In this document: piece after piece, positions 2,077 to 55,300 of the stretch
Numbering within the stretch: position 1 is the stretch's first letter
How the letters are laid out: every line of letters starts with the position of its first letter
Source of the DNA: Deltaproteobacteria bacterium
GTDB lineage: Bacteria; Desulfobacterota; Desulfuromonadia; Geobacterales; Pseudopelobacteraceae
Direction: 5' to 3'
DNA length: 64,000 nt
NCBI GenBank assembly: GCA_021778115.1
Contig: JAJYCS010000003.1
Span: 13,156-77,155, forward strand
Translations under genes and position numbers: made by a program
The notes under the pieces: model-generated
The model's database searches: none
Told to the model about the DNA's origin: nothing
Seen by the model: the letters and a program-made list of their open reading frames with translations, nothing else

Positions 2077-2078
2077 CG

Positions 2079-28815: not shown

Positions 28816-30165
28816 TCACGGCTCCACCAGCCCGTACTCCTTGAGGCGATACTGGAGGGTACGGCGTGAAATACCCAACTTTTCAGCGGTCAGACGTCGA
28901 TTGTTGCCGCAATCGGCCAGGGCCTCCATGATGACGGCCCGTTCCCTCTCCTTCAGACTGAGGGCCTGCTCGTCGTCGATGAACTGCACCGGGGACCGGA
29001 CCGCCTCCGGCAGTTCGGCGGTGGTGATCTCGCCCCTGGCCAGGATGAGCGCCCGCTCCAGCACATTGCGGAGCTCCCGGATATTGCCCGGCCAGCTGTA
29101 GCGGTACAGGGCGGCCAGGGCCGCCGGCGTCACCACCGGGGCTCCTGCGCCGTTGGAAACAGCGGCCCGCTCCAGCAGGTGGGCGACCAAAAGCGGCAGC
29201 CCGTCACGGCGCTCACGCAGGGGGGGGAGATGGAGCGGAAAGACGTTCAGGCGATAGAAGAGATCCTCACGGAAACGGCGCTGCCGCACCTCATCGGCCA
29301 GATCGCGGTTGGTGGCGGCCACCACCCGCACATCGGCCGTCAGTACCCGACTTCCCCCCACCCGCTCGAAGATCCGCTCCTGCAGCACCCGGAGAAATCG
29401 CGACTGCAGCGACAAGGGAAGCTCACCGATCTCGTCCAGAAAGAGGGTGCCGCCGGCGGCCAGTTCGAACTTCCCCTGACGGGCCTGGGTGGCACCGGTA
29501 AAGGCCCCCTTCTCGTGGCCGAACAACTCGCTTTCCAGCAAATTTTCCGGGACCGCAGCGCAGTTCAGGGCCACAAACGGCCCTTTGGCACGGCGACTCG
29601 CCTGGTGTACGGCCTGAGCTGCCAGTTCCTTACCGGTGCCGGATTCTCCGGTGATGAGCACCGTGGCCTCGGTGGGGGCCACCTCATGCAACATCCGGCG
29701 CACCTCCTGCATCACCCCCCCGGCGAACAGCACCTGATCGGGTGGAAGGCCCGACACCGTCCGTTCTCCGGCCGGTACGGCGGCAGACGGTATGGAACCC
29801 GCCAGGGTGCGCCGCACCAACGCCCGGAGCGATTCCGGATCCTTCAGCGGCTTGGTGAGAAAATCCGCCACCCCCTCCTTCATGGCCGCCACCGCCTCTT
29901 CCACCGTTCCGAAGGCGGTGAGCAGGATAAACGGTGTGACGCATCCTGTCTCACGTGAACGACGAAACAGCTCCAGGCCGTTCAAGCCGGGCAGGCGCAA
30001 GTCGGAGAGCACCAGGTCGAAGGACTGACGCTGCAGGGCCATCAGGGCCGCCTTGCCGTCATCCCGGGCGGTCAGCTCATACCCCGCCTCCTCAAGGATA
30101 TCGCTCAACAGGGAGCAAAAGGTGGGGTCATCCTCCACCAGCAGTATCCGGTTACCTGTGCTCAT
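28816..30165 (-). CDS. Sigma54-dependent response regulator (NtrC/ZraR family)
   Basis: REC domain, [22 protein letters not shown], Fis HTH. Confidence 0.94.
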
Positions 30166-31500: not shown

Positions 31501-33279
31501 TCATGCCGGCGCCCCACCGCTGACGCCGGTAGCCCACTGCGCCGTACCGGTTGCTGAGACCGAGAGCCCATGGCGGTTCATCCAGCGCCACAGTGTCGTC
31601 CGATCGACCCCGAGTTCATGGGCGACGGCGTTACGATTCCCCTTAAACCGCTCAAGGAGCGCCATGATGGTCTCGGGTGTGGCGCCGCTGCGGCTGCTGC
31701 CTGCCATGGCAGCGGCTACCCGGTGAGGAACCGTCCCCCCGCGGGGAGGGGTTCTGAAGGCGCCGGGGAGCTGCTCCATGGTGATCTCCGAACCATGACA
31801 CATGATGCTCGCCTGTTCCATAATGTTCAGCAGCTCCCGCACATTACCCGGAAACGGGTAGGTAAAGAACTGCTGCATCACCTCGGCAGCCACCGTGCGG
31901 ATCCGTTTGCCGTAGGCCAGGTTGAACCGCTGCAGCGCCATCTCCACCAGCAAGGGTATATCATCGACCCGCTCCCTCAGTGGCGGGATCTGGAGGGTGA
32001 CGATATTGAGACGGAAGAAGAGATCCTGCCGGAAGCTCCCCTGACGCACCATCTCCGCTAGGTTCCGGTGGGAGGCGGCCACGAACCGTACATCGGCCTT
32101 CACCGGGCTGCGCCCCCCCAGCGGCTGAAACTCCTTGTTCTCCAGGAGACGCAAAAGCTTCACCTGCAGCGTCAGCGGCAGATCACCGATCTCATCGAGG
32201 AAGAAGGTGCCCCCCTGACACTGTTCGATCCGGCCGGGGCGGTTTTCCGCCGCACCGGTAAAGGCCCCCTTGCGTACCCCGAAGATCTCCGACTCCAGCA
32301 GGGTCTCCGGCAACGCGCCGCAGTTGACCGTCACCAGCGGGCCGTTACGCCGACGGCTTAGGTCGTGCAGCGCATGGGCGAACAGCTCCTTGCCGGTGCC
32401 GCTCTCGCCGTACAGAAGCACCGTGGCATCGCTTGCGCCCACATCCTCCATGACGGCGAACAGCTTTCGCATGGCGCTGTTACGGCTCACCAGCCGCCGA
32501 AAGGTATACTTCTCCCTGATCTCCTCCCGCATGTCCACGATGGGGGTCAGGTCCCGCAGGGTCTCCACGCCGCCGATGGCCTTCCCCGAACAGTCGTAGA
32601 GGATGGAGGCACTGGCCGCGATCAGACGTTTACCCCCCCGGCAGTCCGTAAGCTCCAGATCCCGCTGCACGGTCTGACCGGTCGCGACGGCCTCCCGGAT
32701 CGGACAGTTCTGCTGGCAGCTGGTGGTCTTGAACACCTCACTGCAGGGGCGTCCCAGGGCATCCTGATGTGCGATGCCGGTCAACTCCTCGGCGGCCCGG
32801 TTAAAGTTGGTGATCTGCATCCGCTCGTTCACGGTGAACAACCCGTCGGCCACACTGTCGATAATCGAATAAAGCCGCCGAAGACACCGCATTGACTTGA
32901 CCCCGCCGACCAGGACCCCTTCCTTGTTGAACAGCGGCGAGGCCTTGATCAGCACCGGCACGGTTGCCCCCTGACAATCCTGCATGAGCACTTCACGGGT
33001 CACCACCGACCGTTCCCGGCGCCAAATCTCCCGCACCGGACAACCGGCTCCGCACAAGGGGGTAGCGAAGATCTCATGGCACTTCATGCCCAACGCCTCA
33101 TCCCTGCTGACCCCCGACAACAGTTGGGCGGCGTAGTTGTAGGCCACTACGGTCATTTCGGTATCTACGGCGATCACCGCGTCGGACATGTTGTCCAGAA
33201 TCTCGTTATACCATTCTTCTGTGCAAGGTGACTGAAATGCAGGCACATCATCCTCCCTGTTCAGGTCTCGACGCATCAT
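31501..33279 (-). CDS. PAS-PAS sigma54 enhancer-binding protein (Fis HTH), no REC domain
   Basis: Two PAS domains, [32 protein letters not shown]. Confidence 0.92.
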   Translation of the reverse strand: MMRRDLNREDDVPAFQSPCTEEWYNEILDNMSDAVIAVDTEMTVVAYNYAAQLLSGVSRDEALGMKCHEIFATPLCGAGCPVREIWRRERSVVTREVLMQDCQGATVPVLIKASPLFNKEGVLVGGVKSMRCLRRLYSIIDSVADGLFTVNERMQITNFNRAAEELTGIAHQDALGRPCSEVFKTTSCQQNCPIREAVATGQTVQRDLELTDCRGGKRLIAASASILYDCSGKAIGGVETLRDLTPIVDMREEIREKYTFRRLVSRNSAMRKLFAVMEDVGASDATVLLYGESGTGKELFAHALHDLSRRRNGPLVTVNCGALPETLLESEIFGVRKGAFTGAAENRPGRIEQCQGGTFFLDEIGDLPLTLQVKLLRLLENKEFQPLGGRSPVKADVRFVAASHRNLAEMVRQGSFRQDLFFRLNIVTLQIPPLRERVDDIPLLVEMALQRFNLAYGKRIRTVAAEVMQQFFTYPFPGNVRELLNIMEQASIMCHGSEITMEQLPGAFRTPPRGGTVPHRVAAAMAGSSRSGATPETIMALLERFKGNRNAVAHELGVDRTTLWRWMNRHGLSVSATGTAQWATGVSGGAPA

Positions 33280-34286
33280 AGCGTATGACAGCTCTGGCAG
33301 TAGACGTTCAGATCCCCCCGCTCCCGGTTCAGCAGGTTCCGGCTGTCACCGGCGTGGGGGTTATGACAGCCGGCACAGGAGAAGGGGCGATCTTTCTTCA
33401 GCGGGTTCACAGGTCCCTTCACCGGGTGTCCCTTGGCAAAGAAACCGGCGATGACATGGAGACCGCTCTTCTTGTCGTCATGGCAGTTCACGCAGAGGTC
33501 GGTGGGGTGCATCCTGACCAGTGCAGGCCACTCCGCTCCATGGGGGTCGTGGCAGAGGGTACAGTCCCCCATCGCGGTAGGGCCATGATGCACCTTCATC
33601 CCGTTCCACTGCCTCTCCTGGGCGCTGTGACAGAGAAAACAGCCGGTGCGGTCCGGACGGCTGGTATGATACCGCCCCCCCGCACCGCCGACCAGATGAC
33701 AGAGCAGACAGGCGCCGCCAGCGGCCGGGCGATGCAGATAGCGGTTATGCCCCTTGTCGGCATGACAGGGGAGGCAGGGAGAACGCTCCGGCGTGGCCGG
33801 GAAGAGATCCGCAAGGTTCGGCGCCATCCGGTGACAGGGGCTGCAGAACGCCTCAGCGGCAGGCAGATGAAAGGTATAGGGATGGTAGCCCGCAGGAGGC
33901 TCTTGATACGGCTTCAGCAAACGGGAACGCCGGTACACGGTGAGGCCCTCCCTGGCAACCACGGCGCCGCCGCCGGTGGTGGCGGTGAGGGTGATGCTGT
34001 TGAGTCCGGGGGAGAGCGGGACCGCCAGACAGAAGAGCCGCCGCCCCTGCTGTCGCCGCAGGGTGACCTGCGACCGCTCCCTACCTGCAACCGCCAGCAG
34101 AGCGACGCCGCTCCCCGCAACCTCCCCTGCCAGGTGCAGACGATCACCCTCCACGACCCCCTTATCGGCCGGTGTCAACAACCGGATCATCCCCCCCCTG
34201 GCGACGACAGGGGCCAGCAGCACGACGCCGAACAGGACCGTGAGAAACACCGTCAGTGGGAAGCTATGGCGCAACATGCCGTTCAA
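33276..34286 (-). CDS. Octaheme c-type cytochrome with N-terminal Ig-like domain
   Basis: 8 CxxCH motifs; signal peptide; heme-free beta-rich N-terminal region. Confidence 0.88.
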   Translation of the reverse strand: MNGMLRHSFPLTVFLTVLFGVVLLAPVVARGGMIRLLTPADKGVVEGDRLHLAGEVAGSGVALLAVAGRERSQVTLRRQQGRRLFCLAVPLSPGLNSITLTATTGGGAVVAREGLTVYRRSRLLKPYQEPPAGYHPYTFHLPAAEAFCSPCHRMAPNLADLFPATPERSPCLPCHADKGHNRYLHRPAAGGACLLCHLVGGAGGRYHTSRPDRTGCFLCHSAQERQWNGMKVHHGPTAMGDCTLCHDPHGAEWPALVRMHPTDLCVNCHDDKKSGLHVIAGFFAKGHPVKGPVNPLKKDRPFSCAGCHNPHAGDSRNLLNRERGDLNVYCQSCHTL

Positions 34287-35391
34287 CGATCACCTCCAGG
34301 GCTTTCCGATAGGCCGCCGCAGCCGCGGCCGGTTCCCGGCGCGCCTCATACAGCATCCCCTGCTGGAAGAATATCCGGTAGTCGTAGGGACTCAACCGTT
34401 CGGCCCGTTCAAACCACTGCCGCGCCGCGGCCAACTCCCCCTGGCGCCCGGTGACGGCCCCAAGCAGGTAATAGGCCGGCAGATACGCCTCATCGGCGGC
34501 CAGGCAGCGTTGCAAGAGCTGCCGGGCCCCGGCCAGGTCCCCGCGGTCAAGCCGGATCTCCCCCAGGGCGCACAGGGCAACGGCATGTTCCGGTTGCCGC
34601 CTGAGCGCCTCCCCATACTGCCGCTCTGCAGCAGCCTGGTCGTGCTGCCGCGCGTACAGCTCACCCAGACTGAGGTACGGCTGGATGAAGGATGGATCGG
34701 CCGCCTCGGCCCGCTCGAACCACCCCTTCGCCTGGTCGGAGGTCCGTTGGGAACGGAGCGCCGCCACCCCCATGGACCAGAGCCGCAGGGCGCGCTTGTC
34801 TGGCTGCCTGCCCGCCAATGCCACCCCCCTGGCGACCGGTTGCCCCGTTATGGCGCTGACGACCGTACGGCTGAACGCCTCGCTCCCCACCAGGGGAAAC
34901 CCTGATAGTTCAGCCCGGATGATCCCTGTGCCGTCGATGAACACCGTGGTGGGGACCGCAATGACACCGTAGGCGTTGAAGGTGGCAAGCCCCCGGTCAA
35001 GCAGGAGGGGGAAACTCAGCTGCAGCTCCGTAGCGGTGGCCTGCACCGCCCGCAGGGTCCCCTCGGTCACCTCCTGGCGGTCCACATTGATCCCCACCAC
35101 CGACAGCCCCTCCTGCCGGTACCGCCGGTAGAGCCGCTCCATCTCCCGCAGGGCCTTTACGGAGTTCTCCCCCCAGGTGGCCCAGAACAGAAGCAGCGTC
35201 CCCCGCTTCCCGATCAGCCTCCCCAGCTCCGCTGATCCCCCCTGGGAGGCCTGCAGGCTGAAGGGGGGGGCATCCATTCCCACCTCCAGGGAACGGAGGG
35301 CCGAGGAGGAGGCACTGCTCTGCATCAGGAAGAACACGATCCAGAGCGGGATCAACCAGCGGGGACGCCCATGACCGCCGGTACCGTTCAT
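34264..35391 (-). CDS. TlpA/ResA-like thioredoxin fold + TPR, lacking CxxC
   Basis: FWATW-GENS in place of WCxxC; VPTTVFID cis-Pro motif; C-terminal TPRs. Confidence 0.8.
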   Translation of the reverse strand: MNGTGGHGRPRWLIPLWIVFFLMQSSASSSALRSLEVGMDAPPFSLQASQGGSAELGRLIGKRGTLLLFWATWGENSVKALREMERLYRRYRQEGLSVVGINVDRQEVTEGTLRAVQATATELQLSFPLLLDRGLATFNAYGVIAVPTTVFIDGTGIIRAELSGFPLVGSEAFSRTVVSAITGQPVARGVALAGRQPDKRALRLWSMGVAALRSQRTSDQAKGWFERAEAADPSFIQPYLSLGELYARQHDQAAAERQYGEALRRQPEHAVALCALGEIRLDRGDLAGARQLLQRCLAADEAYLPAYYLLGAVTGRQGELAAARQWFERAERLSPYDYRIFFQQGMLYEARREPAAAAAAYRKALEVIVERHVAP

Positions 35392-35891
35392 TGTCCCCAG
35401 TGCCTGCCCAGTTCGTGGGCCTTGATCCCCTGCTTGAAGACCGCCAGGGCCCGGGTGTGATCCCCCCGTTTTTCGTAGATCCTCCCCAGTTCCAGATAGA
35501 TCCTGGCCGGATCGGGGGTGAGGGGAAGCTGCTGGCGCAACAGCTGTTCCGCCTCATCCAGTCTCCCCTGTCGCGCAAAGACGATGGCCCGACCGATCCT
35601 CGCCGCGCTGTTGCCGGCATCAAGCTGCAACGCCTGGTCAAAGGCCGACAGGGCGCCGTTCAGGTTATTGCCGGCCAGCAGCAGATTCCCCTGCTGCACG
35701 CATTGCTTCAGTGAGAACTGCCCTCCACTCACGGGACTGTGCACGCCTGCTCCCTCCTTCCGGTTTGTTTGCGGGGTTGCGACGGCTTTCGCCGCCGGCA
35801 GGGCCGGATCACCCGCCGGCGCCGACAACGGCAGCGCCGTCACCAGCAGCGCCAGCAGCACGCCTGCCCGCCCGATCCTGATCCCGATCAT
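35388..35891 (-). CDS. Exported TPR protein
   Basis: Start re-called at ATG 35891 (ATGA overlap); signal peptide; three TPRs. Confidence 0.8.
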   Translation of the reverse strand: MIGIRIGRAGVLLALLVTALPLSAPAGDPALPAAKAVATPQTNRKEGAGVHSPVSGGQFSLKQCVQQGNLLLAGNNLNGALSAFDQALQLDAGNSAARIGRAIVFARQGRLDEAEQLLRQQLPLTPDPARIYLELGRIYEKRGDHTRALAVFKQGIKAHELGRHWGQ

Positions 35892-37258
35892 CTGTTTTTC
35901 ACCATCTTTGCCCGGTCGTATCTGAACTCCTGATGACAACCGGGCAGACAGGAACCGCCCCCCTTGTTTTTCACCAGCCCCACCGGCAGTTGCCAGGCAC
36001 CGAAGGGGACCGCATCCCGGATATGGTTCGGGTTGTTGGTGGCGTGGGCGTCATGACAGGCGCGACAGGTCCGCCCCTTGGGGGACTTGTTGACATGGAC
36101 GTAGTGCAGGTTCTGATCGCCGTTGCGGAAGCCGGTGAGAGTCATGGTCGTGGGTTCCTTCACCAGGGTGTCGTTGTGGCAGTTAAAGCAGAGCTGATAG
36201 TTCTGCGGGTCGTACTTCGCATAAAACAGGGGGGGATAATAGGCCCGCAGAATCCTGAAAAAGTTGGAACCATGGGTGTTGTGGCAGCCGGAGCAGTCCT
36301 TCTCCTTGATCGGCCCGTGGGTGTTACGGTTCGTGGCAAAAAGCTCCTTCATGTTGGCAGTCTTCTGTTCCCCATGGCTGTACTGGCGGTCATGACAGGA
36401 GAGGCAGAGGTCCATGGGGGCCATGGCCAGCTGCTTGGGAAAGAACGAGGTGTGGGGGTTGTGACAGGCAAGGCAACCGGTGGACAGCTCCAGACCACCG
36501 TGTTTCACCGTCACGGCGGCAATCTCCTTCTGTTTGTCCTTATGGCAGCTGAAACAGACCCCCTTGGTCCGCTCACCAATCAGGGTGTACTGGTAATCAC
36601 TGCTGTGGGGGTTATGGCACTGCACGCAGCCGCCCTTCATCGGGGCATGGATATGGGGACGGGTGGCAAACTCAGCCTGTTTATCCTTATGACAACCGTA
36701 GCAGGCATCGCTCCCCTTGCCGGCCAGCAGCTTGGGGAACTGCCCCGAATGGTGGGCATGACAGGCGCTGCAGTCACCAACCGCCACCGGACCGTGCTTC
36801 ACCTTACCGTTGATGATGGAGCGGGGATGGCATTTGAAGCAGAGCTCCTGTCCCCCCCCCCGCAGTTGAAACTTGTTGCCGGACTGGTGCGGACTGTGAC
36901 AGCCGGTGCAGTTCCCCTCCTTCACCGGCTGGTGCACCACCGGCCCCAACTGCAGCTTGTCGTGGCAGGCATAACAGAGGGAGGCCACATCAGTGATCGG
37001 CGTGAAGGCGTGGCGCCCCGGCGTTGCCTGCTTGTGGCAGAAGACGCAGTTACCGGTTGCCACCGGTCCATGCACATACTGATCCTTCCCCATGGTGGGG
37101 TGGCAACCGCTGCTGACACACCCCTGCCCCGCCTTCAGGGCAAAGTCGGCAGCCGAAAGCTCCGGCGCCTCCCCGACCATACCCCAGACAAGGGCCACCA
37201 GCACCCCCATCAGACCTGCCCGGAATCGCCCAAACCGACACAGACTCGCCTCAGCCAT
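35888..37258 (-). CDS. 15-heme periplasmic c-type cytochrome
   Basis: 13 CxxCH plus CVSSGCH and CLPGCH; recurring HxPV...CxxCHxPH spacing. Confidence 0.9.
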   Translation of the reverse strand: MAEASLCRFGRFRAGLMGVLVALVWGMVGEAPELSAADFALKAGQGCVSSGCHPTMGKDQYVHGPVATGNCVFCHKQATPGRHAFTPITDVASLCYACHDKLQLGPVVHQPVKEGNCTGCHSPHQSGNKFQLRGGGQELCFKCHPRSIINGKVKHGPVAVGDCSACHAHHSGQFPKLLAGKGSDACYGCHKDKQAEFATRPHIHAPMKGGCVQCHNPHSSDYQYTLIGERTKGVCFSCHKDKQKEIAAVTVKHGGLELSTGCLACHNPHTSFFPKQLAMAPMDLCLSCHDRQYSHGEQKTANMKELFATNRNTHGPIKEKDCSGCHNTHGSNFFRILRAYYPPLFYAKYDPQNYQLCFNCHNDTLVKEPTTMTLTGFRNGDQNLHYVHVNKSPKGRTCRACHDAHATNNPNHIRDAVPFGAWQLPVGLVKNKGGGSCLPGCHQEFRYDRAKMVKNR

Positions 37259-37313: not shown

Positions 37314-38996
37314 CTACAGTCCATGGATCTCACCATGGCAGACCAGGACGCAGGAGTTTTTGTTGACCACCGGCGGGAGATACTGAATCGGCTTGCTGCC
37401 GTTTTGGGAGACCACCCGCAGGTCGAAATTGATCATCCCCAGGTTGTACGGATTGCCGTGGGGGTCGTGACAGTAGACGCACCGGTCCTTGAGCGGATGG
37501 GTGCTGACATGGGTCTTGTGCTGCTTGAACTTGGTGTAGGTGCCGAACAGGGTAGTCACGTTATGGCAGCCGAAGCAGAGGTCGTAATCGGCCGCGTTGT
37601 AGGTGGTGGCCGGCAGCTCCGAGGTGACAAAATTACGGACCAGGATATGGGGGTAGATGGAACCGTGGGATCCTCGTATCCCGCTGGAATCGCTGCCGTG
37701 ACAATCGGTGCAATAGATGACGCTCCCCTTCACCAGCGGGGGGATCAGCATGTTATCGGATATCTTGTTAAGCGGTCCCATCACCGGATGAAAGGAGGGA
37801 TTGGCCGGATTGAACTTGATCCGGTTGTCCGTGATGGTGGTCACCCTGGGGATGGCGGTGGTGGGCATGACGTTATTGAGCAGGGACCCATGGCACTTGA
37901 AACAGACCTCATACTCATACGTTGCGGCTACAAGATAGGTATTGGCCGCGGTCACCGCCGGCACCCCCTGCAGCCTGCCGGGCACCAGCGGGGCCGGATA
38001 GAGGACGCTGTTGGCCTGGTGGGGGTTGTGGCAGTCAACACACTCCACGTGCTTGGTGACCCCGCCAGCGTAGTTCTCAGCCGGATCATGGATGCCGGTG
38101 TAGGAGGAGACCGGGTGACGGTACGGCTTATTCAGGTCGGTAAGGATGTTCTTCGCCGCCACATTGCCGTCATGGCAGACGAGGCAGTTGGTCTCCTCCA
38201 CGCTGTAGTTCAGAAGCCGCTGGGGACCGCCTGCCCCATGGGGACGATGACAGCTGCCGCACGCGTTCTCCGCCACGGTGGTATAGCTGGATCGGGGCCA
38301 GGGGTCCGGGGCTATCCCGTTCCAGCTCTTGGTGGAGACGGCATGGCTGCTGGCGCCCCAGTTGGTCTTCTGATGACAGCCGACACAGAGGGCGCCGCTC
38401 AGATTGGAGATGACCAGAAACTTGCCATACTGGTCGTTGTGGGGGTCATGGCAGGCGGTACACTGCATCTCCCCGGCACTGTCGAGCCGGATGGCCGCCG
38501 GAAGGGCGGCAGCGCTCTGCAACTGGCTGCCCGGCATGGAGGCCGCCGTGCCGTAGACGAAGGAGACCGGATGATCGTCCGCCAGATTGGTCCCCAGGTT
38601 ACTGCTGCGACCGGCCAGGGTGGCGGTAAATGGCAGCACCGTCCCCTGGGAGAGCACCGCCCCCAGGGCGATGGTGCCGTCGTGGCAGGAGAGACAGAGC
38701 CGTGATGCGCCGGTGGGTTGCCCCACGCTGCTCCTGAGGGTCGAGCTGAGATAGGGAGTATAGGGGTCACCCGGGTCCTGTCGATTCCAGAGATAGGGGA
38801 CGTCGGACCGAGCGTTGTGCGGGGTATGACAGAAGATGCAGATCTGGCTCTCCGTGGTGGCCTTTATGGCGCCGGGACCGCTCACCGAGAGGTTGTGCAG
38901 GCTGGTGACGATGCTCCCCCCCCAGGCCGCCCAAGGGGCGCCGAGCAGGACACAACAGGCCGCCACGGCTGCCCGTATCGATGCAACGCCGTTCAT
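37314..38996 (-). CDS. 12-heme cytochrome with N-terminal OmcE-like tetraheme module
   Basis: 11 CxxCH plus CVLVCH; the first four hemes align by eye to the 44667-45263 protein. Confidence 0.88.
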   Translation of the reverse strand: MNGVASIRAAVAACCVLLGAPWAAWGGSIVTSLHNLSVSGPGAIKATTESQICIFCHTPHNARSDVPYLWNRQDPGDPYTPYLSSTLRSSVGQPTGASRLCLSCHDGTIALGAVLSQGTVLPFTATLAGRSSNLGTNLADDHPVSFVYGTAASMPGSQLQSAAALPAAIRLDSAGEMQCTACHDPHNDQYGKFLVISNLSGALCVGCHQKTNWGASSHAVSTKSWNGIAPDPWPRSSYTTVAENACGSCHRPHGAGGPQRLLNYSVEETNCLVCHDGNVAAKNILTDLNKPYRHPVSSYTGIHDPAENYAGGVTKHVECVDCHNPHQANSVLYPAPLVPGRLQGVPAVTAANTYLVAATYEYEVCFKCHGSLLNNVMPTTAIPRVTTITDNRIKFNPANPSFHPVMGPLNKISDNMLIPPLVKGSVIYCTDCHGSDSSGIRGSHGSIYPHILVRNFVTSELPATTYNAADYDLCFGCHNVTTLFGTYTKFKQHKTHVSTHPLKDRCVYCHDPHGNPYNLGMINFDLRVVSQNGSKPIQYLPPVVNKNSCVLVCHGEIHGL

Positions 38997-40033
38997 CGCC
39001 CCCCCACCTTCAGGTACTGGAAGAGCTGCACCCGGTTGTTATAGGTATCCGCCACGTAGATCCGGTCGGTGGCGTCGATGCTGATCCCGGTGGGCATCCA
39101 GAATTCCCCCGCCTGCCGTCCATGGCCGCCGAATGCCAGCAGAAGCCGCCCTGCCCGGTCAAAGATCTGCACGTTGTCGAACAGGGCATCAACCACGTAG
39201 ATGTTATCGTCGCTATCCACCGCTATCCCCCGTGGCCGGCTGAAGGATCCCGGGGTATCGCCAGCCGTGCCGAAGCTGCGGAGAAAGCTGCCGTCGGGTC
39301 CAAAGAGCTGTACCCTGAAGTTCAGGGTATCGACGACCAGAATCTCGCCTTGGCTGGTGATTGCGAGATCGGTCGGGTAATTGAACTGCCCTTCGCCGTT
39401 GCCGCGGCTCCCGAAACGCCCCTTGAAGGCGAGGGTTACCCGGTCATAGCGAAAGACGGCCGCCTTGCGGCTGTCCACCACCAGGAGCTCGTCGGTCCGC
39501 CGGTTCAGGGCGATACCGGTGGGACGCTCAAGCGCCCCCCTGCCCAGTTCGCCGGGCCCGCCCCCGGCAAGGGACAGTATCCTGACGCCGCAGGCAGCGG
39601 CATCGCTCACATAGAGACGCCCGGCCCGACTGTCCACCGCCAGCCGCACCGCCACCTGCAGCGGATGGTCGTCCTCGGGGAAGATCCTGAACCGCTGCCG
39701 GGTGCGGTCATAGAGTTTGACCGTCTGGGAGGCCGCATCAATCACATACACCGTGCCGCCGGCGCCGACGCCGATGCCGGTGGGCTGCACCAGGCGACGA
39801 TCCACCCCGCCCGTCACCACCTCCCAGATCCTCGCCAGCAGCCCGTTCCGTATCCCCAGGTCGTCAGGCAGCGCAAAGCTGCCGAGATACCGTATCCTCA
39901 CCGGTTCGGCACCGGCAGGCCAGACCGGCCCCTCCGGCAGCGGTCCGCTCAGGTGGCGCTCTGCGGCGCAGCCGATGCACAGGAACAGCAGCATCGCCGT
40001 CGGCAGGTATCGACGCCAGGGCCGCGCCATCAC
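38993..40033 (-). CDS. NHL-repeat beta-propeller lipoprotein
   Basis: Lipobox CIGC; repeats F..P.GIAVD...IYVVD..NxRVQ.F. Confidence 0.9.
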   Translation of the reverse strand: MMARPWRRYLPTAMLLFLCIGCAAERHLSGPLPEGPVWPAGAEPVRIRYLGSFALPDDLGIRNGLLARIWEVVTGGVDRRLVQPTGIGVGAGGTVYVIDAASQTVKLYDRTRQRFRIFPEDDHPLQVAVRLAVDSRAGRLYVSDAAACGVRILSLAGGGPGELGRGALERPTGIALNRRTDELLVVDSRKAAVFRYDRVTLAFKGRFGSRGNGEGQFNYPTDLAITSQGEILVVDTLNFRVQLFGPDGSFLRSFGTAGDTPGSFSRPRGIAVDSDDNIYVVDALFDNVQIFDRAGRLLLAFGGHGRQAGEFWMPTGISIDATDRIYVADTYNNRVQLFQYLKVGGR

Positions 40034-42702
40034 CAGACCGCCCTGCTGAGTTCAAGCACCACCGCCTGACTGGTCCGGTCGTACCGGTTGAACAGATCGT
40101 TTTGTTGCGCGTACTTGTAGCTGAGACGGAGGGTCCAGAGGCGGTACCCGGCCTCGAGGGCGACCTTGCCGCCGCGGTTCAGACTCCCTTCGAGGTCGCC
40201 GTCGATCCGTTCCAGATACCCTTCGAGGGCGCCGTTTAACCAGGTAAAAGGGAACCAGGTAAGCCCCAGCACGCCGCCGTAGCTCTTCTTCAGATCAACG
40301 ATGCTCCGGTAACGGGTCTCGCCGTAATAGCCCCGCATGTTCCAGCGGAACCAGTTGCCGTACTGCAGCCGCAGGCTCTGATAGGCCTCCCAGCGCCCAT
40401 AGGAGAGGTCGGAGTTACTGGTGGTATCCTCATATATGCAGCCGCTCTCCCCCCATCCTTCGTCGATCCTGATGCTGGCCAGATGCATCCGGCTGTTGTT
40501 CAGCAGATCGGGGGATGGGCCGCCCAGAAGACGCTGATCCGACTGCAGGTAACGGTAGTTGAGGAACAGGGTGCGGAACAGCTCAACCGATGCCCCGTAC
40601 TGCTGGCTCACCACCAGGTCGTCATAACCGGCGTTTCGGGTATACCGGTAACTGACCAGTATCAACTGGCCGTCACCGATACTCCCCAGAGGCAGCCGAC
40701 TGATCCGGATCGATCGGCCGATCAGGTCGGCCCGGTAGTCCAGATCCTGGACGTAGATCACCGATCCGGCGCTGTTGGTGATCACGATGCTCCCGTCGCT
40801 TACGTCGCTCTGGGTAAGAAAGGTCTCGGCGCCGTTGCGCAGGGTGTGCGGTTCATTGGTGATCTGCACCGACCCTCGGGAGCCGCTCCGGGTGGTGTAG
40901 ACCGGCGTCACCCCGGCGCTCAGCCCCACCACCCCCCATCCCCCCAGGGCACGCTGATAATCGGTCTGCAGCACTCCCCCCGCCGACTGCTGACGTCCGC
41001 CGTCTGCCTCGTTGCTGGAACCGGTGACACCGGCCATGGTGGTGAGATTTTCGTATAGCCGGTGGGTCAGCCGGGCATCCAGCGAATGCCAGCTGCTGGT
41101 GGAACTGCCGGCGTTCACCCGACGGAAGATATACTGCCAGCTTGAGCGGAGATTCGGACGGTGCTGCCAGGCGAGAAGCTCGTTCAGGAACAGGGAATCG
41201 TTCTGCAGGGCGGAGCCGCTCTGCCCCAGGTACTGAAGATTGCTGGAGAGGGTGACCCGCTCGTCCTTCGTCACCGGATACCGGTTGTTCAAGACGCTGG
41301 TTATGGTCCTGATCTCGCCGGAAATGCCGTTTGTGGACTGGTTGTTCAGGCTGTAGGAGAGGGAGAGACTACTCTCGCCGGTCAGGTTGTTCCGGTTACG
41401 GGTCAGCAGATGCAGCTCCCGCCAGTCGCTGCTGGCGCCGTAGTACCCTTCCTGGTCCGACCGGCTGCTGCTGAGCCCCACGCTGGTGGGCAGCAGCTCA
41501 TATTTCAGCGTAAGGTCTGCCCCGTAACTTTCGCTGGTGGTGCTAGTCACCCCGGTAAAGATCGCCCAGGAACGGTTCTCCAGGTGCTGGCCGAATGCGG
41601 TGAGGGTATAGGGTTTCTGCCCCAGCAGGGTGACATTTGCCTGGTAGTTGGGACTGAATGCGTCGCTTGAGCCGTTACTGCTGCCGGTCAGGGCTGCGTT
41701 GCTCCTGGTGATACTCTGGGCAAACTCGGGGGAAAACTTGAGCCTGAACTGCAACAGGGCCGGATGGTACAGGTACCCCTTGCTTTCAAGGTCAAGCCGT
41801 TCGGTGACGATGTGGGAACGGTCTAACTGCTTGCCCCCGGTGACGTTCCGGTCATCCTGGTTGAATTCATACCTGACCTGGGCCCCCACCGATGGGGGAT
41901 CAATGGCGATACGATGCCGTGTTCCCGCCTTCTCTTCGTTTTTGCTCCACCGGTACCCTCGCCGGGGCGATTCATCCGCTCCCGCCTCCATGAGGGGAGA
42001 TACGCCGGCGGTAGCCTGCCAGTTCCGCTGCAGATCGCCTGCGCCGTACATCAGGCGGGCCCGCTGCACCGTCTCCGCCGGGGTAAGGGGGCGTATCTGC
42101 GCTAGGGTGTCCAGGGCGTTCACCGCATCGGCAGGGCGGTTCAGGGATTCCGCAAGCCGGGCCTGTTCCTTCAACAGGGCGGCACGCTCCCCAAAACGGA
42201 ACCCCGAGGAGAGCAACTGATAGGCCTCGTTGAGGCTCCCCAGCCGTTCACTCACCAGCAGATACTCCTTAAGCAGCTCCGAATCGCCATCACCGCTCAT
42301 CAGGATGGTCTCAAGCAGAGAACGCCGCACCGGCAGTTCGTTCATGCTCCGGGAGAGACGCAACGCCTCCTGTCGGGCCGCGCCATCCCCCTGTTTCACC
42401 AGGTAGACCCAGTAGTTCAGGGCTGTTGCGGGTTTCCCGGCCAGTTCTGCACAGCGGGCTGCACGGCGACGCCACTCCAGATCGGCGGGGTGGGCCTCGA
42501 TCGCCTGTTCAGCCATCTGAAGCGCCGCATCATATCGGTTTTTCGCCATGTTGCTGATATACGCCATACCGTAAAGTTCATCCTCAAAGAGATTTCGTGC
42601 GTCATCAACGCTTGTGGGCCCCTGCTCAACACCATGGGCCGGGCCGTGCACCACGGAAAGACCTGCACACATCGCCAACAGCAGTAACCGCCGTCTCGCC
42701 AT
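40030..42702 (-). CDS. TPR + large outer membrane beta-barrel (porin of a porin-cytochrome conduit)
   Basis: 890 aa; signal peptide, helical TPR-like N-terminal ~230 aa, long alternating beta-strand region, terminal aromatic residue (LELSRAVW). Confidence 0.75.
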   Translation of the reverse strand: MARRRLLLLAMCAGLSVVHGPAHGVEQGPTSVDDARNLFEDELYGMAYISNMAKNRYDAALQMAEQAIEAHPADLEWRRRAARCAELAGKPATALNYWVYLVKQGDGAARQEALRLSRSMNELPVRRSLLETILMSGDGDSELLKEYLLVSERLGSLNEAYQLLSSGFRFGERAALLKEQARLAESLNRPADAVNALDTLAQIRPLTPAETVQRARLMYGAGDLQRNWQATAGVSPLMEAGADESPRRGYRWSKNEEKAGTRHRIAIDPPSVGAQVRYEFNQDDRNVTGGKQLDRSHIVTERLDLESKGYLYHPALLQFRLKFSPEFAQSITRSNAALTGSSNGSSDAFSPNYQANVTLLGQKPYTLTAFGQHLENRSWAIFTGVTSTTSESYGADLTLKYELLPTSVGLSSSRSDQEGYYGASSDWRELHLLTRNRNNLTGESSLSLSYSLNNQSTNGISGEIRTITSVLNNRYPVTKDERVTLSSNLQYLGQSGSALQNDSLFLNELLAWQHRPNLRSSWQYIFRRVNAGSSTSSWHSLDARLTHRLYENLTTMAGVTGSSNEADGGRQQSAGGVLQTDYQRALGGWGVVGLSAGVTPVYTTRSGSRGSVQITNEPHTLRNGAETFLTQSDVSDGSIVITNSAGSVIYVQDLDYRADLIGRSIRISRLPLGSIGDGQLILVSYRYTRNAGYDDLVVSQQYGASVELFRTLFLNYRYLQSDQRLLGGPSPDLLNNSRMHLASIRIDEGWGESGCIYEDTTSNSDLSYGRWEAYQSLRLQYGNWFRWNMRGYYGETRYRSIVDLKKSYGGVLGLTWFPFTWLNGALEGYLERIDGDLEGSLNRGGKVALEAGYRLWTLRLSYKYAQQNDLFNRYDRTSQAVVLELSRAVW

Positions 42703-42706
42703 CCCG

Positions 42707-43465
42707 TTACCGCCTCTCCGCTACCGGTGAGGCGGTCTCGCGATACTCACTGATCAGCAGGGAACGCCCTTTCCCCAGATGGGGATTATGGCAGGAGAGA
42801 CAGGGCTCCGGGCCACGGGGATGGGGAATCAACGCGCCAATGGCCTCCGGGCTGTGACAGGAGCGGCAGAGCTGGTCAGCCGGCTTACGGAGGATCCCTG
42901 AAATCCTGCTCTGGTGAGGATCATGGCAGGCCAAACAGTCCCCCTTTGCCACCGGGTTGTGCAGCCAGAGCCGCTCCTTGATGGCCCGTATGGCGGTCTT
43001 ATCAGCATGACAGCCCAGACAGAGCCGTTCCTTGGCCCCACACAACGGCCCCGGCATACCGCCGCCGGTATAGAACACCCGTTCCCCTTCTGGTGTGCCG
43101 CCACCCTTTCCCTGCTGAAACAGGAACTGGTTGTTTCCGCCATGGCAGGCGATACACTCCCCCTGCAGCCAGGGGCGGTGGGAGTAATACCGGATAACGA
43201 CCGGAACCGCTTTTCCTCCTGTCTGGGACCGTTGTGCCGGACTGCCTGACAGGGGGAGCTGCCGTTGCCCCGCCGGTTGTCTGGCACCTACCGGGGGAGC
43301 TTCTTTTTCCTGGACCTCCAGGGGAGGGACACCGGTAAAGAAGAAGGTCAGCACGGTGTGACGGCTTTGGACGGAACAGCCAGCGAGCAGCAGCCCCACC
43401 GCAATACTCCACGCGAAAACTCCCTGATGCCAGCCACTCTGCATTCTCCGCGTCACCCCCTCCAT
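42707..43465 (-). CDS. Pentaheme c-type cytochrome lipoprotein
   Basis: Lipobox LLAGC; 5 CxxCH motifs; start may be a few codons later (MQSGW). Confidence 0.85.
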   Translation of the reverse strand: MEGVTRRMQSGWHQGVFAWSIAVGLLLAGCSVQSRHTVLTFFFTGVPPLEVQEKEAPPVGARQPAGQRQLPLSGSPAQRSQTGGKAVPVVIRYYSHRPWLQGECIACHGGNNQFLFQQGKGGGTPEGERVFYTGGGMPGPLCGAKERLCLGCHADKTAIRAIKERLWLHNPVAKGDCLACHDPHQSRISGILRKPADQLCRSCHSPEAIGALIPHPRGPEPCLSCHNPHLGKGRSLLISEYRETASPVAERR

Positions 43466-43483: not shown

Positions 43484-44554
43484 CTAGGGGGTCCAGTCGC
43501 CAAAGCCATAGACGTTCAGCTTGTTGACACCGGCCATGTTGCAGACATAGACCAGATACTTAAGCTTGAAGCGGGGATCGGCAAAACGCTGAAAAAATGG
43601 GACGTTGTGGTAATCGATGGCAATCCCTGCGGGCAGGTACATGCTGCCGGGGGTATCCCCGGCACCGCCGAAGAACAACAGCAGTTTCCCCTCAGGGTTG
43701 AATATCTGGACATTCTCAAAGGCGGCATCCACCAGGTAGAGATTGTTGTCCCCATCAACGGCCATACCCTTTGGCCTGGCCAGACTCCCCAGGGTATTGC
43801 CGGCAGTCCCGATCTTCTGCAGAAACCTCCCGTCAGGAGCGAACTTTTGCACCCTGAAGTTGAAGGCATCGTTCACCAGCAGGTTACCGACCCGATCAAC
43901 GGTGATATGGGTGGGACGGTTTAGCTCCCCCTCCTTGTCCCCCCCCTTGCCGATGGTCAGCAGCTGTTTGCCGGTCAGGCGGTCAAACACGACAACCCGA
44001 TGCTTCATCATGTCGCAGACATAGACCCGGTCGCCGTACACCGCCACATCGCAGGGGCGTTCCAGCTGGGCGGGATCTCCCAGGGTTCCGATGAAACGCC
44101 TGTCCGGCCCGAAGACCACCACCTGCCGCCGTTTCAGATCGGCGATGTAGAGGGTTCCGTCGTCGCTCACCCAGATGCCGGAGGGCACCTGCAGCGCCCC
44201 CCGTCCGCCGGCACGCAGTGGGGAGATGCGCCGTTTCTGCAGATCGATCTCCAAGATGTCGTTGGAGACCCGATCGGTGAGATAGATACGCCCCTGGACC
44301 CCATGAACCGCGTAGGGCCGCCCCATGGTCCTGTCGGTCTCCCGCCCCCCCAGCAGAAAGTCATCCAGCTTGGAACCGGCATCGACCAGATCATCAACCG
44401 ACGAGATGGAGGTGAGAAACTGCAGGCGGGGCTTTTCAGGCAGGGGGGGATACAGCACGGCCTGCTGCTGCGGGGTGGTGGTGGCGCATCCCTGGAACAA
44501 CAGCATGAACAGCGGCATCAGCAGGATCCGGCACAGCATGACGACAATGGGCAT
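43484..44554 (-). CDS. NHL-repeat beta-propeller lipoprotein
   Basis: Start re-called at ATG 44554; lipobox FQGC; NHL repeats. Confidence 0.88.
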   Translation of the reverse strand: MPIVVMLCRILLMPLFMLLFQGCATTTPQQQAVLYPPLPEKPRLQFLTSISSVDDLVDAGSKLDDFLLGGRETDRTMGRPYAVHGVQGRIYLTDRVSNDILEIDLQKRRISPLRAGGRGALQVPSGIWVSDDGTLYIADLKRRQVVVFGPDRRFIGTLGDPAQLERPCDVAVYGDRVYVCDMMKHRVVVFDRLTGKQLLTIGKGGDKEGELNRPTHITVDRVGNLLVNDAFNFRVQKFAPDGRFLQKIGTAGNTLGSLARPKGMAVDGDNNLYLVDAAFENVQIFNPEGKLLLFFGGAGDTPGSMYLPAGIAIDYHNVPFFQRFADPRFKLKYLVYVCNMAGVNKLNVYGFGDWTP

Positions 44555-44666
44555 TACAGATCTCTCCCTTCGGTCGCAGGGCGCACGCATCACGGCAACT
44601 GCCGGGGCGACGGCCGCCATGGGTCGCCGGATCCCGGCTCGTTTGCCGCCTGCGGTGCAGGACGGG

Positions 44667-45263
44667 TTACTTCAGATGACAGGTGAGACAGAGCGCCGAA
44701 CCGGTGTTGGCCTTGTTCAGCATCTTGTCCAGGTTCAGCTTGTTGTGCACGTCATGGCAGGAGGAACACTCGAATTTGCCGCTGTTCAGCCACCCCGCCG
44801 GCAGGGTGGCGGGATCGGCCAGTTCGCCATCGGCTGTCTGCAACGTGCTGTCGTAGGTAAAGGAGACCGGGTGACTCTTTTTCAGATCGGTCCCTAGATT
44901 ACCGGCCGTACTGATCATGGTGGTGCCGGTATTGGTGCCGTAGGCATCAAGCGCCACGGTGCCGTCATGGCAGGAGAGGCAGAGCTTGGAGACCCCGGCC
45001 GGCTGGACGATGCTGCCTTTGCCGTTAAACGTGGGACTGTCGTACAGCGTGTAGGTGGCGGTAGTCAGCTTGTGGTTCCAGAGGGGGGCATCAGTGGTGC
45101 TGGTGTCGGCCTTGTGCGGTGTGTGACAGACCACACAGATCTGCGCATCGGTGCCGGTCAGGGCGCTCAAGTCGTGCTTTGATGACTTCACAGCGGCCTG
45201 GGCAAGAGAGGCAAGACCGACAGCGGCAAACAGGGCGACCAGGGGCAGGGCAATCCGTTTCAT
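44667..45263 (-). CDS. omcE: OmcE-like tetraheme outer-surface cytochrome
   Basis: Start ATG 45263 with AAGGAG RBS; KHDLS..QICVVCHTPH..LWN..LY..CLSCHDG..NLGTDL..HPVSF..ECSSCHDVH..LCLTCH, matching the OmcE motif order as recalled. Confidence 0.8.
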   Translation of the reverse strand: MKRIALPLVALFAAVGLASLAQAAVKSSKHDLSALTGTDAQICVVCHTPHKADTSTTDAPLWNHKLTTATYTLYDSPTFNGKGSIVQPAGVSKLCLSCHDGTVALDAYGTNTGTTMISTAGNLGTDLKKSHPVSFTYDSTLQTADGELADPATLPAGWLNSGKFECSSCHDVHNKLNLDKMLNKANTGSALCLTCHLK

Positions 45264-45395
45264 GATGTTCTCCTTTGTCTTTCGGGTCTCGTTTCCCGTC
45301 GTTTCCAATCGCGCCTACTGAATTTATGCAAAGACGCAGATATATAAAAAATAATATAAATGATTTCAGCAAGTTAACACATTGTGCGGGATATC

Positions 45396-45412
45396 ATCAG
45401 ATTCCGTGCCAA
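45396..45412 (-). promoter_or_regulatory. Putative sigma54 promoter of the cytochrome operon
   Basis: TTGGCACGGAATCTGAT: perfect -24 element, deviant -12 (GA). Confidence 0.5.
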
Positions 45413-45583: not shown

Positions 45584-46573
45584 ATGCCGCTATTCCTCTT
45601 GCCCCATAACGCCCTCGATGCGTGCCTGCAGCGCCTCCGCAGCGTCGCCGAACTCCATGGCCCACGGCGTGATACGGACGGACTCTGTCGCCTTGCCCCG
45701 CTGCCGGAGGGTGTGCGCCCTGATCTCACGACGCTGCGGACCCTGCTTCCGGCCAAGAAGTACCTGCTTCCCCCGGTAGAGACCACCCTCACCTTCCGCC
45801 CGGGAGAGGGGTACCGGCTCCCCCGGTTGCCTGACACCCCCCTGATCCTGCTGGGGCTCCACCCCTGCGACCTGGCGGCAATCGCCTACCTCGACCGGCA
45901 GTTTCTGGCCGCCCCGCCTGACCCCACCTACGCAGCCCGCCGGGCGGCAATCACCCTGGTGGGAACCGGCTGCAGCCCTGATGGGTACTGTTCCTGTCTG
46001 ACCCACCCTTCCCCCCTCCCGACCCCCTGCGACCTGTTCCTGCATCCGGTGGAGGAGGGGTTCCTGGTGACGGCTGAGAGCGACCGGGGGAAAGAGCTCT
46101 GCCGATCGCTGGCCGGGCTGCTGCAGGCGGATCGACGGTGCCCGCCTCCGTCGGCACGGGACCGGTTCGCCCCCCCCCTTCCCCCACCCTCCACCGAGGA
46201 GCTCGACCTCTCACTACCGGACTGGCGTGAGCTGGCAGATCACTGCCTCGGTTGCGGCGCCTGCTCCATCGCCTGCCCCACCTGCGCCTGTTTTGAACTG
46301 CTCGAATACGCCACTCTTGACGCTGCCGGCGCCGAACGTAGACGACGCTGGGATAGCTGCCTCTTCAAGGGACACGCCATGGTGGCCGGGGGAGAGAGTT
46401 TTCAGCAGGAGCGGTGGCAACGGTTCCGCTACCGTTATCAACACAAGTATCGGGGATTCGGCCCGCTCCAGGGTCTCCCCTCCTGCGTGGGCTGCGGCCG
46501 CTGCCGGGTTCAGTGCCCCAGTGGGCTTGACCTCCGTCCCCTGGCGGAACGCCTGGAAAGGAGGGAGGCATGA
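45584..46573 (+). CDS. Group 3b hydrogenase beta subunit (HydB/AsrA-like, 2x4Fe-4S)
   Basis: CLGCGACSIACPTC, RRWDSC, CVGCGRC..QCP. Confidence 0.88.
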   Translation: MPLFLLPHNALDACLQRLRSVAELHGPRRDTDGLCRLAPLPEGVRPDLTTLRTLLPAKKYLLPPVETTLTFRPGEGYRLPRLPDTPLILLGLHPCDLAAIAYLDRQFLAAPPDPTYAARRAAITLVGTGCSPDGYCSCLTHPSPLPTPCDLFLHPVEEGFLVTAESDRGKELCRSLAGLLQADRRCPPPSARDRFAPPLPPPSTEELDLSLPDWRELADHCLGCGACSIACPTCACFELLEYATLDAAGAERRRRWDSCLFKGHAMVAGGESFQQERWQRFRYRYQHKYRGFGPLQGLPSCVGCGRCRVQCPSGLDLRPLAERLERREA

Positions 46574-47418
46574 GCTCCGGCAGTCCCCCCTGTCCGGCGA
46601 CACTCCTCAGCATCCGCCCCCTGAGCGGGGATACCTCCCTGTTCACCCTGCAGGTACCGGAGGGGGCTCAAGTGGGAGGGGAACAGCCCTGGCAGTTCGA
46701 ACCGGGACAGTTCCTGCAACTTTCGGTGCCAGGTGCCGGAGAGGCGCCGATCTCCTACTGCGGCGTCCCCACCCCAGACCGGCGGGTCGAGCTCTGCATC
46801 CGCCGGGTCGGCCGGGTCACCACCGCCCTGCACCATGCCCTGCCGGGGGATCAGCTGGCGGTGCGGGGCCCCTTTGGTCGCGGCTTCCCCCTCAGGCACT
46901 ACCTGGGACGGGATATCCTGCTGGTGGCGGGGGGACTCGGCATGGCGCCGCTCCGCGCCCTGCTCCATACCCTCCTCGCAGAACGGCAACGATTCGGCCG
47001 GTTAACCCTCCTGTACGGGGCCAAGGCCCCGGACGCCCTGCTGTTCCGCCATGAGCTAACCGATCTGGCCGGTCGGAAGGATCTGCTCCTGCGCCTGGCG
47101 GTGGACCGGGCCGTGGCCTGCCCGGCGGCGATTCCCTCCTGCCGTGAGGCGCTGCTGCCGGAGCTCCTGGATGGCCTTGCGCTGACGCCGGGGCGCACCT
47201 TCGTCCCGGTCTGCGGGCCACCGTCGCTCTATCGGGCGCTGATACCGCCCCTGCTGGCACGGGGGGTGACGCCGGACCGGATCCACCTCTCCCTGGAACG
47301 CCGGATGCAATGCGGACAAGGGCGTTGTGGCCACTGCGCCGTCGGCAGCCTCCTCTGCTGTACTGAGGGTCCGGTGTTTGCCTACAGCACCCTCCTGGGG
47401 ATCGAGGGGGCGCTGTGA
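46570..47418 (+). CDS. Group 3b hydrogenase gamma subunit (FAD/NAD-binding, 2Fe-2S; HydG/AsrB-like)
   Basis: GEAPIS, RGPFGRGF, AGGLGMAP, CGPP, ERRMQCGQGRCGHC...C.EGPVF. Confidence 0.9.
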   Translation: MSSGSPPCPATLLSIRPLSGDTSLFTLQVPEGAQVGGEQPWQFEPGQFLQLSVPGAGEAPISYCGVPTPDRRVELCIRRVGRVTTALHHALPGDQLAVRGPFGRGFPLRHYLGRDILLVAGGLGMAPLRALLHTLLAERQRFGRLTLLYGAKAPDALLFRHELTDLAGRKDLLLRLAVDRAVACPAAIPSCREALLPELLDGLALTPGRTFVPVCGPPSLYRALIPPLLARGVTPDRIHLSLERRMQCGQGRCGHCAVGSLLCCTEGPVFAYSTLLGIEGAL

Positions 47419-53704: not shown

Positions 53705-53708
53705 GCGG

Positions 53709-54350: not shown

Positions 54351-54354
54351 GAGG

Positions 54355-55263: not shown

Positions 55264-55300
55264 TGAACGATCCTCTCGTCAGCCATCAGGCCACCCTGGC

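Follow-up and report, generated by a model that had tools for sequence, protein, structure and literature searches.

A dodecaheme cytochrome with an OmcE-like head as a candidate end-piece of OmcE filaments

The 64,000-nucleotide stretch of DNA analysed here (the window) belongs to a deltaproteobacterial genome assembly (GCA_021778115.1, contig JAJYCS010000003.1, positions 13,156 to 77,155) and carries a tightly packed operon on its minus strand. In the order of transcription, this operon encodes an OmcE-type tetraheme subunit, an NHL β-propeller, a pentaheme cytochrome, an outer-membrane protein with tetratricopeptide repeats (TPR) and a β-barrel, a second NHL β-propeller (NHL346), a dodecaheme cytochrome termed T12, an MtrA/DmsE-like cytochrome of 456 amino acids (cyt456), two TPR/thioredoxin-like proteins and an octaheme cytochrome. 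Four-base-pair overlaps join the barrel gene to the second propeller gene and the latter to that of T12, and no convincing terminator or promoter pattern is seen inside the operon. This article is concerned with T12, in which a domain homologous to the filament subunit OmcE is continued by eight more hemes. Its sequence suggests a role as an end-piece, and we regard this proposal as evenly poised between right and wrong: a histidine near its N-terminus (His34) may ligate the heme that is left open at one of the two ends of an OmcE filament, while the octaheme tail may link the filament to an outer-membrane conduit.

The twelve heme sites of T12 comprise eleven CxxCH motifs and one CX3CH motif (C549-VLV-C553-H554). 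Four belong to the OmcE-like part and eight lie beyond it, as a preliminary description of this DNA had stated, except that the twelfth motif is not of the CxxCH type. The protein begins with a signal peptide that contains two cysteines, C14 and C15; since these are kept in only 2-3% of homologues in a 194-sequence alignment, T12 is not a lipoprotein. In the homologues, the signal peptide is followed by the consensus SIVxSxHNLS, which includes the equivalent of His34. The OmcE-homologous domain that follows (M1) has its hemes at C53, C101, C179 and C204, with H60, H142 and H186 as probable distal ligands. M1 thus holds the full ligand set of OmcE for four hemes, namely three internal distal histidines and one on the N-terminal arm.

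The kinship between M1 and OmcE is evident at several levels. All motifs that had previously been listed as common to the two neighbouring proteins are indeed present in both and in the same order: HNLS/HDLS, QICxxCHTPH, LWN, CLSCHDG, NLGTxLxxxHPVSF, CxxCHDxH and LCxxCH. The pairwise comparison then proposed bears this out; in BLASTP, residues 48-210 of T12 are 43% identical (E 3e-35) to the 213-residue product of the OmcE open reading frame (44667-45308, minus strand). Searches of the PDB with T12 residues 13-210 return the two solved OmcE filaments, 7TFS (E 2e-26) and 9YUQ (E 2.6e-21), and no other significant match. The same two structures are the only significant matches of the 213-residue OmcE product (9YUQ, E 7.7e-26; 7TFS, E 1.3e-22). 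A hidden Markov model of 118 free OmcE homologues finds T12 residues 23-210 with E 2e-51, and a profile-profile comparison of the T12 head with OmcE gives E 2.4e-66. The similarity is far beyond chance, and residues ~27-212 are confirmed, at the level of sequence, as a genuine OmcE homologue. The mature arms are also comparable, with SIVxSxHNLS in T12 and TIVGSKHDLS in OmcE, and with the histidine at about position 7-9 in both.

Strictly speaking, T12 is nevertheless not an OmcE subunit, since it differs in length, C-terminus and clade. Every one of the 118 free OmcE homologues stops two residues after the fourth heme motif; T12 runs on for 350 amino acids. In a phylogenetic tree, a branch with SH-aLRT 92 separates 55 M1 domains from 75 free OmcE sequences, a split that fits a single old duplication and fusion. 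Apart from the free OmcE and the T12 head, the source genome (2.29 Mb, 99% complete) encodes no OmcE-like sequence. M1 is conserved slightly better, at 53% identity, than the partner OmcE, at 48%, and the two diverge in a correlated manner (r 0.5).

An OmcE head on a bigger cytochrome is not specific to T12, since the same architecture recurs in other families. In Aromatoleum, Sedimenticola-like Gammaproteobacteria and Gallionellaceae, an OmcE-like head is followed by 7-8 more hemes in an extension of 470-640 amino acids, often as two tandem copies (L139:9563-12478, L144:2823-5744, L148:4682-7411, L159:9830-12346, L138:9878-12058 and L153:9983-12643).

The tail of T12 is of a different nature from the head. 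Because residues 213-372 are co-linear with the OmcE profile (E 3.5e-13), T12 could be imagined as three tandem OmcE modules. This idea was ruled out with the other cytochromes of the cluster as controls: residues 213-372 and 373-560 score as well or better against cyt456, the pentaheme lipoprotein (cyt252) and the octaheme cytochrome of the operon (cyt336). The E values for the tail segments against these unrelated proteins range from 1e-13 to 5e-19, with cyt456 at 5e-16 and 5e-19. As the tail segments match unrelated cytochromes equally or better, only the first module is specifically OmcE-like, and T12 is, by sequence, an OmcE head on a generic octaheme tail of paired CXXCH units. It is also not a member of the MtrA/DmsE family as judged by its profile score; against TIGR03508, the decaheme model of that family, T12 reaches 45.2 bits with a cut-off of 192.2. 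Other weak matches in Pfam and NCBIfam are to the MtrC/MtrF, DmsE and NrfB families.

At least 365 species-level genomes contain a full-length homologue of T12 (41-50% identity), and metagenomes add thousands of further matches. The 80 loci that were retrieved cover more than 15 phyla; the groups represented include Nitrospirota, Pseudomonadota (Alpha-, Beta- and Gammaproteobacteria), Bacteroidota, Ignavibacteria, Calditrichota, Planctomycetota, Verrucomicrobiota, Myxococcota and Acidobacteriota. In 194 full-length homologues, all 12 heme motifs are invariant, and so are 16 histidines outside these motifs (three of them at 99%): 34, 60, 142, 186, 218, 253, 294, 303, 316, 326, 403, 444, 493, 496, 513 and 558. 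Spacings are fixed as well, with ten residues between His208 and His218 in 193 of the 194 sequences and four between His554 and His558 in 191. Since twelve distal ligands are needed and sixteen conserved extra histidines are available, all hemes of T12 can be ligated without His34. The count therefore allows His34 to be free, and it may ligate a heme of another protein.

The genomic setting is equally persistent. An NHL propeller gene lies directly upstream of the T12 gene in every related locus with upstream sequence, and a free OmcE gene is found within 7.6 kb of it in 51 of the 59 loci that have enough flank. With E for free OmcE, N for an NHL propeller, B for the barrel and c plus a number for a cytochrome, the core order E-N-(c5)-B-(c13)-N-T12 recurs over more than 15 phyla. 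E-N-c5-B-N-T12 is a recurrent variant among related loci. The order is E-N-B-N-T12-c8-c7 in Gammaproteobacteria and E-N-c5-B-c13/14-N-T12 in Bacteroidota, and in Ignavibacteria and Calditrichota N-T12 is followed by E-N-c5-B-c13. Homologues of cyt456 are present in most of the related loci, and also in the omcE clusters of Geobacter. The features of the operon in the window are collected in Table 1.

Table 1. Genes of the cytochrome operon and features of T12 (positions in the window)
Feature	Position	Strand	Basis or remark
OmcE-type tetraheme subunit, 198 amino acids from Met16	44667-45263	-	PDB matches; database protein of 198 amino acids; longest open reading frame extends to 45308
NHL β-propeller, 378 amino acids, lipobox-like LFQGC	43484-44620	-	Always adjoins OmcE
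Pentaheme lipoprotein cytochrome, 252 amino acids, lipobox LLAGC	42707-43465	-	c5 gene at this position in most related loci
Outer-membrane protein, 890 amino acids: N-terminal TPR region (~250 amino acids), ~30-strand β-barrel, small insert	40030-42702	-	
NHL β-propeller NHL346, 346 amino acids, lipobox-like LCIGC	38993-40033	-	Pfam NHL, E 1.9e-33; stop overlaps T12 start by 4 base pairs
T12, secreted dodecaheme cytochrome, 560 amino acids	37314-38996	-	Open reading frame and heme motif count
T12 signal peptide, residues 1-26	38919-38996	-	Probable type I cleavage near AWG/GS
M1, OmcE-homologous tetraheme domain, residues 27-212	38361-38918	-	Sequence and profile comparisons
His34 codon, N-terminal arm histidine	38895-38897	-	Invariant (194/194); arm alignment; putative inter-subunit donor
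His218 codon	38343-38345	-	Invariant; 10 residues past last M1 heme histidine; putative in-cis ligand
Octaheme tail, residues 213-560, seven CxxCH and one CX3CH	37317-38360	-	Generic paired-CXXCH units
His558 codon, C-terminal	37323-37325	-	99% conserved; 4 residues past last heme histidine; candidate in-cis cap
cyt456, MtrA/DmsE-like cytochrome, 456 amino acids	35888-37258	-	55 base pairs downstream of T12
TPR protein	35388-35939	-	Downstream accessory gene
Thioredoxin-like/TPR protein	34264-35391	-	Downstream accessory gene
Octaheme cytochrome (cyt336)	33276-34286	-	Homologue in Geobacter omcE clusters

The porin that the preliminary description had assumed does exist, at least as a predicted structure. 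An AlphaFold2 model of the last 640 residues of the 890-residue protein (40-sequence alignment) shows ~30 long strands, with a predicted local distance difference test (pLDDT) score of 90.5. In Foldseek, its best match in the PDB is MtrB of the Mtr complex (6R2Q_B, E 1.6e-9), and the next matches are other large barrels, pilus ushers included. The N-terminal TPR region, recognised by Pfam, is absent from the homologues of ~650-700 amino acids in the other loci, which align only to residues ~265-890. A small and well-conserved β-rich insert with the consensus SIxVxDxxGxxxYxEGxDYxL...TVLVDY is located between barrel strands 18 and 19 (residues ~622-678, model residues 372-428), and its role may be that of a plug or of a docking domain. 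Next to T12, cyt456 contains 13 CxxCH motifs and two longer ones, at ~30 amino acids per heme; it matches the TIGR03508 DmsE family with E 2.2e-34 and 119 bits, below the cut-off of 192. T12 itself is less compact, with ~47 amino acids per heme compared with ~30 in peptide-minimised conduit cytochromes such as cyt456.

How cytochrome nanowires start, stop and attach to the cell is an open question, as the paper describing the second OmcE structure (August 2026) makes explicit (PMC13712944). Within an OmcE filament, one heme of each subunit takes its sixth ligand, a histidine, from the next subunit (PMC13712944). According to Petersen et al. (mBio 2026), the anchor should resemble OmcE and possess an additional histidine; in the same paper, the omcE operons of Desulfuromonadia are stated to contain no candidate for either an anchor or a tip (PMC13712944). 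The cluster type discussed here is already known: NHL-containing cytochrome clusters have been described in Desulfovibrio ferrophilus (PMC5815863), the omcE cluster in Desulfuromonadia (PMC13712944), and similar 'porin-scaffold-cytochrome' systems in peat Acidobacteriota. A 12-heme cytochrome from the similar cluster of D. ferrophilus, a possible homologue of T12, was found in the outer-membrane fraction (PMC5815863). A literature search revealed no paper that notes an OmcE head on a 12-heme protein, or that reads such a protein as an anchor.

Comparison with known systems delimits what T12 shares with each of them. With OmcE of Geobacter sulfurreducens (7TFS) and D. soudanensis (9YUQ), its head has in common the motif order, the four hemes and the three internal histidines plus that of the arm; it differs by 350 further residues, eight hemes, a separate M1 clan and the HNLS arm. 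The minimal omcE cluster of Desulfuromonadia (PMC13712944) likewise encodes OmcE, two β-propeller lipoproteins, a large β-barrel and multiheme cytochromes; T12 and the pentaheme lipoprotein are extra components of the type of cluster described here, whose range exceeds 15 phyla. MtrCAB-type conduits also have a large barrel, MtrB (6R2Q), and here an MtrA/DmsE-like cytochrome adjoins T12; the tail of T12 likewise consists of paired-CXXCH units. MtrB has 26 strands. The barrel in the window has ~30, and T12 departs from the MtrCAB pattern by its OmcE head and by its larger number of residues per heme.

A functional analogy can be drawn with pilus terminators, of which PapH, the terminator and anchor subunit of P pili, is an example. 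PapH-type terminators donate an N-terminal element to the last major subunit, accept none, and so end and anchor the fibre. The likeness is functional only; PapH has no kinship with T12 in sequence or fold, and its link is a donated β-strand, whereas that proposed for T12 is a histidine-iron bond. The chaperone-usher terminator analogy has been drawn before, without naming PapH (PMC13712944).

Within the cluster, T12 appears from its sequence to be the best candidate for a filament cap or anchor. The scheme that follows combines putative histidine-heme assignments, a putative contact with OmcE, a presumed capped filament end and a presumed cellular location. T12 would be exported via its type I signal peptide. 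The presumed OmcE fold, four hemes and histidine-bearing arm of M1 would allow it to dock on the end of a filament; M1 would do so at the end that exposes a heme without a sixth ligand, and His34 would supply this ligand, as the next OmcE would. By analogy with OmcS, the arm histidine is probably the one that is donated between OmcE subunits. His218 would fill M1's own open heme in cis, and the remaining invariant histidines, His558 included, would fill the other eight hemes, so that His34 stays free. T12 would then be able to donate but not to accept, and another subunit could not be added behind it. In this manner T12 would terminate and anchor the filament and lengthen its heme chain by eight hemes, with the tail leading toward a conduit made up of the MtrA-like cytochrome and the MtrB-like barrel of ~30 strands. 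T12 might either sit on top of this conduit or be partly threaded through the barrel, and the translationally coupled NHL propeller lipoprotein might be its dedicated assembly partner. In this complete form, with T12 as both terminator and anchor of the OmcE nanowire, His34 as donor, His218 as in-cis ligand and the tail wired to an MtrAB-like conduit in the 30-strand barrel, the proposal is tentative and somewhat more likely to fail than to hold in every part.

Of the two filament ends, the cell-proximal one is favoured for T12, for four reasons. T12 is better conserved than OmcE, and exposed cytochromes evolve fastest (PMC12977616); its gene is translationally coupled to those of the barrel and the propeller; it lies beside that of the MtrA-like cytochrome; and, in the pilus analogy, a donor-only subunit is the terminator.

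A number of observations weigh against a terminator and anchor. The contact between T12 and OmcE is putative, and polarity by itself cannot separate the base of a filament from its tip. The arm of T12 is fixed as HNLS, while OmcE arms read HD(F/L)S, and the two arms do not co-vary within genomes (3.78 identities of 12, versus 3.85 for permuted pairs). The eight-heme tail has no specific likeness to OmcE. An AlphaFold2 model of T12 (73 sequences, no hemes in the model) has a mean pLDDT of 69.9; the tail reaches ~88, but the head is poorly predicted, with values below 50 over residues 56-145, and a Foldseek search of the PDB with this model gives no match. Moreover, cyt456 has at least an equal claim to being the component threaded through the barrel. 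Being peptide-minimised, with ~30 amino acids per heme versus 47 for T12, it is the more conventional barrel insert; T12 may for this reason be an adaptor on the conduit rather than the conduit, and need not cross the membrane. Finally, the solved filaments all come from omcE clusters of the Geobacter type, in which no T12 is encoded within 10 kb; an in-cluster T12 is therefore not required for OmcE filaments to form. The earlier view of T12 as a nucleator or adaptor between filament and porin thus stands in part: the OmcE-like head with its arm histidine, the synteny, the actual barrel and a His34 that may be free agree with it, and the absence of T12 from the Geobacter-type clusters does not.

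Several of these points would be accommodated if T12 were a conventional component of a porin-cytochrome conduit, MtrA-like in the periplasm or MtrC-like at the surface, which has OmcE ancestry but makes no histidine-linked contact with a filament and uses His34 for a heme of its own. By its profile matches, the tail is no closer to OmcE than to the MtrA/DmsE-like cytochromes of the cluster, the weak family matches are to MtrC/MtrF, DmsE and NrfB, the arm motif is unlike that of OmcE and does not co-vary with it, and the Geobacter equivalent of T12 is encoded away from omcE (see below). In addition, the 12-heme protein of D. ferrophilus was predicted to be periplasmic and MtrA-like (PMC5815863). 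Yet such a protein would hardly be expected to retain the whole OmcE ligand set and arm across more than 15 phyla, to carry four invariant histidines beyond the needs of its hemes, or to remain in tight synteny with OmcE, and its ~47 amino acids per heme exceed the ~30 of peptide-minimised conduit cytochromes. An ordinary conduit role is accordingly considered rather unlikely.

Two further possibilities keep T12 in contact with, or make it into, a filament. As a distal tip, T12 would be exported first, with OmcE joining from below, and would touch minerals or partner cells through its eight extra hemes. The donor-only logic suits a tip as well as a base, and the authors of the mBio 2026 study called for an OmcE-like tip with more exposed hemes (PMC13712944). 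This location is difficult to reconcile with the conservation of T12, which is better than that of OmcE even though surface-contact cytochromes evolve fastest (PMC12977616), with its translational coupling to the barrel-NHL genes and its last place in the operon, or with the chaperone-usher analogy, in which a donor without an acceptor is a terminator and not a tip; it is thought improbable. T12 might alternatively polymerise with itself into a nanowire with twelve hemes per subunit, in which His34 of one T12 would ligate the final module of the one that follows. It does possess an OmcE-type donor arm, and OmcE relatives with extra hemes have been proposed in the literature as new nanowire families, but the surplus of invariant histidines, His558 among them, suggests in-cis ligation of all T12 hemes, a gene for free OmcE almost always accompanies that of T12, and no such filament has been reported so far. 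A self-assembling T12 is very improbable.

The Geobacter-type loci offer a further perspective on the relation between head and tail. They encode OmcE, NHL proteins and homologues of cyt456 and cyt336, which are their two cytochromes. These Geobacter relatives were reached by protein query; a degenerate DNA pattern for the omcE locus of G. sulfurreducens found nothing. In seven Geobacter/Desulfuromonadales genomes, T12 is present in split form, as two adjacent genes behind an NHL346-like propeller and away from omcE. The first encodes an M1-like tetraheme protein that is 45-51% identical to T12 residues 32-212, and the second an octaheme protein that is 34-38% identical to residues 245/280-558. 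The octaheme half bears a signal peptide of its own. In six pairs studied in detail, it has a conserved histidine in an xHLD motif (SHGD in one) at mature position ~6-12, and it keeps the CHGxxH ending (CHGVDHNPKxY), including the equivalent of His558. The separated tail thus starts with a histidine-bearing arm, as a filament subunit does; this is what would be expected if the arm ligates the open heme of the head in trans.

An identification of the split pair with OmcP/OmcO was ruled out for OmcO, as the OmcO homologue Gmet_0558 has 27 hemes. Geobacter genomes also contain open frames of 1342-2331 amino acids that hold a segment 35-49% identical to part of T12. Three such segments (G001:C16:38005-38340, G005:C1:110658-111029 and G002:C46:59673-59879) match T12 residues 13-115 in the head, and one (G004:C63:111268-112080) matches residues 243-490 in the tail. 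Some of these large frames may be 27-heme proteins of the OmcO type.

The significance of T12 lies in the fact that the more widespread form of the cluster encodes, next to an MtrB-like barrel, an OmcE-like protein with an eight-heme tail, of the kind that had been predicted as an anchor (PMC13712944). Should the proposed role be correct, termination by a subunit that donates but does not accept, as in chaperone-usher pili, would have been realised with histidine-iron bonds and conserved in more than 15 phyla. T12 is also a marker for metagenome surveys that is better conserved than OmcE.

Some observations concern the surroundings of the operon. Two sigma-54 activators are encoded beside it (28816-30165 and 31501-33279), so that regulators of the sigma-54 type occupy the region just downstream, at 28.8-33.3 kb. 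Upstream of omcE, by ~90-130 base pairs, there is a weak sigma-54-like match, TGGCACGGAATCTGAT (45396-45411, minus strand). It was rejected as a promoter, because a single weak match of this kind is not above chance (30 matches found, 32.5 expected).

Hydrogenase-related genes adjoin the cytochrome operon (45584-49416, plus strand, and 50748-57286, minus strand). They comprise a set resembling a soluble NiFe hydrogenase, with an Fe-S protein, an FAD/NAD-binding protein and a NiFe large subunit, and a membrane-bound complex of the Mbh/Mrp type, with a Complex1_49kDa/30kDa fusion and two antiporter-like subunits. These neighbours may reflect a hydrogen-linked electron economy of the organism. 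At a distance of ~35 kb from the cytochrome cluster, a secretin-family protein is encoded (2042-4228, plus strand; Pfam Secretin, E 5e-38). It has been discussed whether cytochrome filaments might instead be exported through secretins of type II or type IV pilus systems.

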